From Pseudomonadota bacterium (lineage in GTDB: Bacteria > Pseudomonadota > Gammaproteobacteria > Eutrophobiales > Eutrophobiaceae): a DNA stretch of 64,000 nucleotides. The DNA lies in NCBI GenBank assembly GCA_022574295.1, contig JACZSJ010000001.1:786-64785 (forward strand). Direction: 5' to 3'. Every line of letters starts with the position of its first letter. Position 1 is the stretch's first letter. A model generated the notes under the pieces. It worked only from the letters and a program-made list of their open reading frames with translations, was not told where the DNA came from and made no database searches. Below, one piece after another: positions 3,790-4,088 of this stretch. A program made the translations under genes and the position numbers.

Positions 3790-3866
3790 TGCGGGGTGGA
3801 GCAGTCTGGCAGCTCGTCGGGCTCATAACCCGAAGGTCGTAGGTTCAAATCCTACCCCCGCTACCA
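3790..3866 (+). tRNA. metY: tRNA-Met (CAT), initiator-like
   Basis: 77-nt cloverleaf. The anticodon loop CTCATAA gives anticodon CAT. The anticodon stem has three consecutive G-C pairs (GGG/CCC). Positions 1:72 are unpaired (T:T), the sequence ends A-CCA, and the TPsiC loop is TTCAAAT. It is closely similar to E. coli tRNA-fMet and sits upstream of rimP-nusA-infB as in the metY operon. Confidence 0.85.
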
Positions 3867-4088
3867 AATGAAATGAGTTAGGGAATTTGGTAATTCGCCC
3901 TGGCGCGGAGCGCATGTCGGACTCGGTTGTTTAATAACAGGCGAAGGTCGTAGGTTCAAATCCTACCCCCGCTACCAAATGAAATGAGTTAGGAAATATG
4001 GTAATTAGGCCTGGCGCGGAGCGTATATCGGGCTCGGTTATATAATAACTGGCAAAGGATACAGGTTTAAAACCTGTCTCCGTTGCCA
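3867..4088 (+). repeat. Two decayed tandem pseudo-copies (period ~111 bp) of the preceding tRNA-Met gene
   Basis: Copy 2 (about 3903-3976) keeps an intact 3' half (CGAAGGTCGTAGGTTCAAATCCTACCCCCGCTACCA) but has a degenerate D-arm and anticodon arm. Copy 3 (about 4012-4088) is further degraded (T-arm ACAGGTTTAAAACCTGT, 3' end CCGTTGCCA). All three copies share the spacer AAATGAAATGAGTTAGG.AAT.TGGTAATT. Confidence 0.7.

Follow-up and report, generated by a model that had tools for sequence, protein, structure and literature searches.

We analyzed a 64,000-nt stretch of contig JACZSJ010000001.1 (assembly GCA_022574295.1), which is referred to here as the window, and in particular its initiator tRNA gene, the equivalent of Escherichia coli metY, together with the two repeat units that lie between this gene and the rimP-nusA-infB operon. 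The source organism lies within an uncultured marine gammaproteobacterial clade, of which the nearest species representatives present 75-81% RimP identity, with named genera such as Neptuniibacter and Halomonas at about 50%. ARAGORN called a single tRNA over the whole window, a tRNA-Met(CAT), and the gene carries all of the hallmarks of a bacterial initiator, namely a CAU anticodon, an anticodon stem with three G-C pairs in a row (TCGGG/CCCGA), an unpaired 1:72 position (U1 opposite U72) and A11:U24 (within GAGC/GCUC), as read from the sequence and the Rfam alignment. The description of this gene in the initial annotation, as an intact initiator tRNA-Met with a CAT anticodon, a 1:72 mismatch and a run of G-C pairs in the anticodon stem, was thus confirmed, as was the position of the locus directly upstream of rimP, nusA and infB, which are followed by rbfA, truB, rpsO and pnp. 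The metY sequence is invariant across all clade members examined. The 50 nt on its 5' side are 100% identical to those of the related locus L128 and 92% identical to those of L011. The putative promoter found in this segment was not listed by our promoter scan because it matches the consensus at 8/12 positions, under the scan threshold of 9/12. It should also be mentioned that U1 opposite U72 (window positions 3790 and 3862) stands in place of the C1 opposite A72 of E. coli, and that the same U1:U72 is seen in most metY genes of the fetched Pseudomonadales, Oceanospirillales and Xanthomonadales loci (L011-L075), with Bermanella presenting C1:A72.

Directly 3' of the tRNA lie two 111-bp units, unit 2 (3867-3977) and unit 3 (3978-4088), which start at the base after the tRNA CCA and stop 8 nt before a terminator hairpin (Table 1). 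Tandem Repeats Finder reported the repeat over 3831-4058, with a period of 111 and a score of 379, at 2.1 copies with 90% matches and without indels, and the same pair was recovered in a second repeat search. Each unit consists of a non-tRNA part, which we term block B, and a copy of the last 36 nt of the tRNA, termed block A. The initial annotation had described two units at this period, both keeping the spacer sequence and the first keeping a perfect 36-nt 3' end of the tRNA, and each of these points held. In unit 3, 12/36 positions of the 3' end differ from the tRNA. A unit pattern with 20 specified bases matched only the two units in the window (expected 0.00 from 100 shuffles), and the array is reproduced in the independent metagenome assemblies L005, which is identical over the region, and L004. 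When the same pattern was scanned against metagenome contigs, 34 of the 35 matches were chance occurrences in G+C-rich coding DNA, and L095 alone was real. No open reading frame of at least 80 aa overlaps 3740-4434 and, by inspection, all frames of the units contain stop codons. The promoter scan of 3600-4500 returned a single promoter-like site, on the minus strand within unit 3, with 1.5 such sites expected from shuffles. The hexamer TATAAT is present in the units of some lineages, unaccompanied by a -35 element.

Table 1 Features of the metY-rimP region (window coordinates)
Feature	Position	Strand	Basis
Putative metY promoter: -35 TTGATT (3749-3754), 17-nt spacer, -10 TAACAT (3772-3777), G+C-rich discriminator GCGCCCCC	3749-3785	+	Reading of the sequence
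Initiator tRNA-Met (metY equivalent), CAT anticodon, intact	3790-3866	+	ARAGORN; Rfam tRNA model, 64.4 bits
Block A: final 36 nt of the tRNA (from the variable region through the T arm and the 3' acceptor strand to ACCA), the segment copied at unit ends	3831-3866	+	
Unit 2, block B: 75-nt non-tRNA part	3867-3941	+	
Unit 2, copy of block A: matches the tRNA 3' end at 36/36 positions, CCA included	3942-3977	+	
Unit 3 (terminal type), block B: 91% identity to block B of unit 2	3978-4052	+	
Unit 3, block A' (remodelled): 16-bp hairpin interrupted by two 1x1 internal loops	4050-4088	+	
Intrinsic-terminator-like hairpin and U-run, t1 equivalent	4097-4122	+	Folding, -14.4 kcal/mol, z = -3.0
Second terminator-like hairpin and U-run in the rimP leader, t2 equivalent	4214-4238	+	Folding, -11.0 kcal/mol, z = -3.3
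rimP, first protein gene of the rimP-nusA-infB-rbfA-truB operon	4435-4890	+	Pfam RimP_N, RimP_C
nusA	4947-6482		
infB	6475-9063		

Units 2 and 3 are not functional tRNA genes, as had been supposed when they were first described. ARAGORN called neither of them, nor any of the units of L004, L124, L130, L132, L134, L139 and all other loci run. The Rfam tRNA model gave unit 2 20.6 bits, against a gathering score of 29, with the score deriving from the T arm and the acceptor strand and with the D and anticodon arms treated as unaligned insertions. The same model found no match for unit 3, and none at E <= 0.5 for the units of five further loci. A cloverleaf with a D arm and a 7-nt anticodon loop is absent from the units, which read CTC-GGTTGTTTA-ATAAC in place of the CTCATAAC of the tRNA. 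The would-be acceptor strand GGCGCGG pairs with CCCCGCT at 6/7 positions in the window, while the variants GACGCGG and GGCACGG (both G-to-A) break pairs without compensation, and L132 and L134 read GATGCTT. RNAalifold predicted no acceptor stem for the units and found covariation in only two pairs, and the fold energies of two stretches of unit 2 are ordinary (z = -0.4 and -0.1). Moreover, CCA has changed to GCA or CTA in several internal units. No decoding role would be expected of the units.

The number of units differs among relatives (Table 2). The comparison across genomes that had been suggested as a check revealed 0 to at least 3 units, with many relatives holding the single gene, and, besides the group with identical RimP, the unit family is present in lineages at 89, 89, 88, 83, 81, 81, 79 and 79% RimP identity. 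In zero-unit relatives, the CCA of the tRNA is immediately followed by AAGTTT and the terminator, that is, by the sequence otherwise found 3' of the last unit. We infer that this junction cannot stem from the collapse of a 36-nt repeat in k=141 assemblies. The array had been described as caught in the process of collapsing; expansion is seen as well, as L004 and L129 have three units. Several contigs end within the array and two scaffolds have N gaps there, which is consistent with a repeat that is poorly resolved by short reads. The array accordingly breaks or gaps metagenome assemblies at metY, and its mis-annotation as tRNA pseudogenes is possible. As an aside, the third unit of L139 (223-305) is split within the T loop by an insertion of about 65 bp, flanked by a 7-bp direct duplication (AAATCCT), which could be a tiny mobile element or a templated insertion.

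Table 2 Repeat units 3' of metY in the window and in other loci, ordered by RimP identity to the window
RimP identity	Locus	Units
100%	L002	0
100%	L001, L003	1
100%	Window, L005	2
100%	L004	3
100%	L006	at least 2
91%	L117, L119	0
89% (P0003)	L124	at least 3
89% (P0003)	L123	at least 1 (N gap)
89% (P0005)	L127, L128	1 each
88% (P0006)	L129, L130	3
83%	L132, L133	1
81%	L011	at least 2
81%	L142	at least 1 (contig begins within array)
81%	L012	0
79%	L134	1
79% (P0073)	L139	at least 3
79% (P0073)	L135-138	0
75%	L013	0
About 50% or less (outgroups)	at least 50 loci	0

About 20 units from nine RimP lineages (79-100% identity to the window) were compared, and the same lesions were found in all of them. 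As these lesions are common to all units, the founder would already have been non-functional before amplification, and units 2 and 3 are, judging from the aligned sequences, sister copies of one dead unit rather than successive stages of decay. In every lineage, internal A blocks agree with the tRNA over 33-36 nt, with occasional changes of the terminal CCA and one single-base deletion as the only exceptions, while cross-lineage comparison shows that the units at the edge diverge. Such a combination of internal blocks that match the tRNA and diverging edges points to unequal crossing-over and gene conversion, namely to concerted evolution. Block B, on the other hand, is conserved about as well as the neighbouring DNA (86.7% identity to L011, with flanking genes at 81-87%; the terminal unit is 96.4% identical to that of L128, with flanks at 96.7%), and thus presents no strong signal of purifying selection.

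The terminal unit behaves differently from the internal ones. The initial annotation regarded unit 3 as further degraded, a view that we could not retain, as the great majority of its substitutions build structure. Over 4050-4088, it departs from the internal unit at 13 positions, and these changes form the 16-bp hairpin just 5' of the terminator, with a minimum free energy of -20.8 kcal/mol, as compared to -11.1 kcal/mol for the internal unit. When changes of equal number and type were introduced at random, the mutants averaged -7.3 kcal/mol, so that the hairpin is far stronger than chance (p = 0.0016 for the window and 0.009 for the orthologous unit of L128). Two changed T-stem pairs were altered on both sides (G-C to A-U and U-A to C-G), and L011 holds the G-U and U-G intermediates. 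Hairpin and adjacent terminator together gave z = -6.3. Orthologous terminal units are found in the window and in L004, L005, L095, L124, L128 and L129, and this shared type indicates that it arose in one evolutionary event. The terminal units of L011 and L134 present degradation only (p = 0.72 and 0.38, respectively). Block A of unit 2 with the preceding GGCG forms a T-arm hairpin of -11.1 kcal/mol, which is not significant when compared to shuffles (z = -1.75). The terminal hairpin may reflect either selection for an RNA hairpin ahead of the terminator or quasi-palindrome template switching. Template switching at a quasi-palindrome could make such a hairpin without any selection.

The terminator assignments in Table 1 rest on folds: a consensus terminator scan of 3600-4500 returned no sites, despite two clear G+C-rich hairpins with U-runs. 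The first of these elements is found directly 3' of the tRNA CCA in L002, L012, L013, L117 and L135. The Rfam rimP-leader model gave a weak, sub-threshold match at 4131-4238 (17.5 bits, E = 5.3). As the units sit between the tRNA and the first terminator, co-transcription as metY trailer RNA is expected. In E. coli, the metY-rimP-nusA-infB operon has terminators t1 and t2 between the tRNA and rimP (PMC6511841), and the window is similar in that the initiator tRNA heads rimP-nusA-infB and two terminator-like hairpins precede rimP.

Taken together, we consider the array to be a tRNA-linked variable-number repeat that is kept by recombination with the live tRNA and is transcribed as a metY trailer and then discarded, and we assign this reading a probability of about 0.7. 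The founder unit would already have been non-functional as a tRNA. It would have been either an incomplete gene copy, reaching from about the D-loop or the anticodon stem to the 3' terminus, or a complete one; nine extra nucleotides would have lain in its anticodon loop, and neither a 5' acceptor nor a D arm can be recognised in it. The comparison of loci shows that the 36-nt A blocks, as well as whole units, undergo unequal homologous recombination and slippage and are converted by the genuine tRNA gene. The array expands and contracts in this way, with 0 to at least 3 units at loci with identical RimP, and the same process holds internal A blocks identical to the tRNA, while the distal unit escapes homogenisation and diverges. 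In the sub-clade of the window, the distal A block has been reshaped into the strong hairpin directly 5' of the metY terminator. The units would be co-transcribed with metY from the putative promoter to the terminator at 4097-4122 and removed during 3' maturation of the tRNA, and any effect they might have would concern how the metY precursor is processed, how stable it is or how far transcription reads through into rimP-nusA-infB.

Several points weigh against this interpretation and should be considered. Co-transcription and removal of the units are deduced from position only. No source for block B or for its spacer was found in the window, the fetched loci or the phage and viral searches. 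The copy numbers were taken from short-read metagenome assemblies, in which runs of identical units could be under-counted. In addition, the 3' 55 nt of block B are 94.5% identical between the window and L011, with neighbouring DNA at about 85% (a manual count with small numbers), and this better conserved part, together with the remodelling of the terminal hairpin (p 0.002-0.009), hints at a constraint that would be unexpected for a neutral repeat.

The metY tRNA itself is a genuine attB in the clade. In L130 (1-3150, on the same contig as L129, with the junction at L129 645-700), foreign DNA runs up to a 45-nt piece of the tRNA 3' end, CTCATAACCCGAAGG...ACCA, with three units after it. Encoded in this foreign DNA are a serine recombinase (Pfam Resolvase), a Shedu-type SduA_C protein and a hypothetical protein, and no intact tRNA is found on the 8.8-kb L129/L130 contig. 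This looks like a defence island integrated at metY. Among 37 IMG/VR contigs with the tRNA 3' end (L143-L179), about 30 hold an exact 45-nt block, CTCATAACCC...ACCA, flanked by non-tRNA DNA. The motif AAATCA..ACTT(A/G)C lies on both sides of the block in viral contigs, and five contigs hold the whole tRNA. These blocks appear to be an attP family that targets the anticodon loop of the metY tRNA-fMet. In this clade, both phages and a defence island mark metY as a hot spot of integration. A displaced fragment of the attR type is present in L130; the window units share 36 nt with the tRNA and not the 45-nt core, with 75 nt of non-coding DNA between copies.

The possible origin of block B was considered with both the tRNA and these mobile elements as sources. 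The 9-mer GTCGGGCTC (anticodon stem and loop) and ATAAC are common to the tRNA and to the units of most lineages, are collinear and adjoin block A. Alignments of block B to tRNA positions of about 16-35 are weak (p 0.01-0.11 for local and 0.004-0.05 for junction-anchored alignments), and no significant global alignment was obtained with the tRNA 5' half, whether taken by itself or together with the upstream region (p 0.28-0.50). As p 0.004-0.05 is attained by local and junction-anchored alignments alone, we treat the homology as probable and not proven, with the tRNA-derived part probably extending, on these alignments, to tRNA position 16-26 or thereabouts and carrying a 9-nt insertion in the anticodon loop. 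Homology to the 5' acceptor or D stem is not detectable in block B, and the 35-nt spacer presents no similarity to the promoter region. An nhmmer profile of block B matched only these arrays, BLAST against the window and all fetched loci revealed no copy outside of the arrays, blastn against 50,697 phage records gave only noise (E of about 7) and an exact-pattern scan of viral contigs yielded 0 matches. Comparison to the end of the L130 island gave p 0.07-0.53. For 19 attP downstream arms, p was 0.05-0.55, with controls scoring equally well, and for 18 attP upstream arms, the similarity was not significant (p > 0.2). A decayed whole-gene tandem duplicate, a partial duplication and an integration scar are the candidate origins of the founder.

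In the initial annotation, the array was regarded as a metZWV-like tandem of functional initiator tRNA genes decaying copy by copy to a single gene. This has real points in its favour: the pseudo-units and the unstable copy number that it relies on were observed, block B does hold the weak collinear similarity to the tRNA described above, the pseudo-tRNA part spans 76 nt, close to the 77 nt of the tRNA, many relatives are down to one gene and intact tandem tRNA-fMet genes 5' of rimP do exist elsewhere. Specifically, Stenotrophomonas pictorum L066 (2553-2787) holds two such genes with a period of 158 bp, and in L069 a distance of 1.1 kb separates two copies. However, at least two intact tandem tRNA-fMet genes, as found in the L066 control, are seen neither in the window nor at any clade locus, and, unlike in E. 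coli metZWV, there is a single intact gene, and its extra units neither are nor have been tRNA genes in the clade members sampled. Moreover, identical lesions recur in units 2 and 3 and in all units of the nine lineages, which places amplification after inactivation, and the single-metY outgroups suggest that the array was gained in the clade and is not ancestral. With a non-significant global alignment to the tRNA 5' half and its upstream region, a spacer unlike the promoter region, expansion besides loss and non-random changes in unit 3, we consider such decay to be improbable. We hold it to be just as improbable that the units are scars of site-specific integration, namely displaced attR-type tRNA 3' fragments with deleted remnants of phages or islands that were later amplified, a version of the initial alternative of att-like tRNA ends. 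The part of that alternative that stood is the tRNA as an active integration target, as seen in the foreign DNA of L129/L130 and in the viral attP-like contigs. Integration followed by internal deletion would give an A-B-A arrangement in one step and would account for a spacer unlike the region upstream of the tRNA. Displaced tRNA fragments are also known as a general principle (PMC4383910), and, as in the Islander-type fragments, the 3' portion of the tRNA recurs in direct orientation after an intact gene. What did not stand is the match to the units themselves: they share only 36 nt with the tRNA, the anticodon-loop crossover region of the 45-nt core being disrupted, the repeats are only 75 nt apart, no mobile-element genes are present and block B resembles neither the sampled attP arms nor the L130 island end (p = 0.07 at best) and is absent from the phage and viral collections. 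The strictly tandem, constant 111-bp period further indicates that one unit was amplified, rather than that integration was repeated.

Slightly less probable still is that the units are functional RNA modules, either tRNA-minihelix-like elements, made up of a T arm, a partial acceptor and ACCA, that would direct RNase P or enzymes of 3' processing, or small RNAs of the kind seen among E. coli tRNA-linked repeats, with the terminal hairpin controlling the stability of the precursor or read-through into rimP-nusA-infB. The strength of that hairpin, the two-sided changes in both T-stem pairs with their intermediates in L011, the intact T loop and ACCA of units, the somewhat better conservation of the 3' part of block B and three repeats in E. 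coli rRNA operons that were reported as processed small RNAs (PMC8144298) all argue for a function. Against this, the absence of any unit at an identical RimP protein means that the units are dispensable, covariation is restricted to one event in the terminal unit, variants break predicted pairs, CCA is mutated in several units, the hairpin of the internal unit is not significant, the terminal unit is simply degraded in L011 and L134 and quasi-palindrome template switching could have built the hairpin. Least probable in our view is a stronger version, in which the units are selected modules of the metY-rimP leader RNA, in which tRNA-minihelix mimics (T arm, short acceptor-like stem and ACCA) and the rebuilt terminal hairpin recruit tRNA-processing enzymes or block 3' exonucleases. 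Were this true, variation in copy number would tune the initiator tRNA precursor and read-through into rimP-nusA-infB, and the marginally similar unit of Bermanella, described below, would make the arrangement ancient or recurrent.

Repeats linked to tRNA genes (tRNA-linked repeats, TLRs) have been known in E. coli since 1978. [quoted passage not shown] Like these, the window units lie directly 3' of a tRNA gene, in the same orientation and, as we infer here, in the same transcription unit, each carries at its end the 3'-terminal sequence of the gene that precedes it (36/36 in unit 2, with terminal units diverged) and there are few tandem copies per locus (0 to at least 3 in the clade of the window). 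In contrast to the E. coli TLRs, the shared 3' end is 36 nt and not 18-19 nt long, the unit is 111 bp and not about 150-178 bp, the host gene is the initiator metY of a marine gammaproteobacterial clade and natural copy-number polymorphism is documented. As a control, E. coli tyrT-tyrV gave a period of 178 bp with 3.1 copies and four matches to RtT (RF00391) of 133-137 bits. In the window, this model gave nothing at E <= 10 in 3600-4500 and nothing at the gathering score over the full length. With the geometry shared but no RtT match, the architecture is common to both, while the sequence family is not. The closest precedent for the array is thus the TLR, of which the window provides, on sequence grounds, an unrelated, non-enterobacterial example.

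A further case is found in Bermanella sp. R86531 (L052, 2596-2740), where metY is followed by a pseudo-unit with a 91-bp period and then by a shorter and more degraded copy. As in the window, homology resumes at GTCGGGCTC, the anticodon loop is disrupted and the pseudo-unit ends in the 3' end of its own tRNA. Unlike the window, the tRNA sequence differs (C1 opposite A72) and the unit is 91 bp. The homology between the non-tRNA parts of the two is no more than suggestive, with pairwise p values of 0.01-0.08, and the nhmmer profile of block B found no match there at E <= 10. The Bermanella unit is probably an independent example of the same process.

The data for this clade document the steps of that process at population level, in that a dead unit was amplified, internal copies were homogenised with the live tRNA, edges diverged and complete loss occurred repeatedly. 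Such dynamics favour recombinational turnover over gene decay as the source of tRNA-linked repeats. If the units affect expression of the translation-initiation operon, the natural copy-number alleles offer a ready-made test series.

Further repeats occur in the intergenic region between metY and rimP. The rimP leader (window 4247-4356) holds a second tandem repeat, with an 84-bp unit present in about 1.3 copies, and in 3.8 copies in L007 (1-319), which encodes an identical RimP protein. Other repeated modules are seen in the related leaders of L128, L129 and L134. Between the two terminator hairpins lies a TTTTTGAA microsatellite, with 10 copies in L129 (1136-1214), 4 in L124, 2 in L128 and a degenerate 1-2 copies in the window (about 4190-4212). 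Variation in the 84-bp repeat and in TTTTTGAA indicates that the intergenic region is generally prone to repeat instability.

On the other side of metY, directly 5' of the gene, genes for AMMECR1, Memo and a radical-SAM protein (the AmmeMemoRadiSam system) are divergently arranged at window 1124-3739, and this trio is syntenic in most clade members. In L013, a complete 2.1-Mb chromosome of a metagenome-assembled genome with 75% RimP identity, the region homologous to the radical-SAM gene (2200-2600) seems to be disrupted by stops and frameshifts, with a lysine-rich repeat ahead of it, such that this gene may be a pseudogene. Finally, when window 3339-5546 was compared to L128, rimP and nusA were 88.6% and 92.2% identical, respectively, the radical-SAM gene, terminal unit and leader 96-97% identical, and the tRNA and promoter region 100% identical. 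This mosaic of identities suggests that the locus has undergone recombination along its length.

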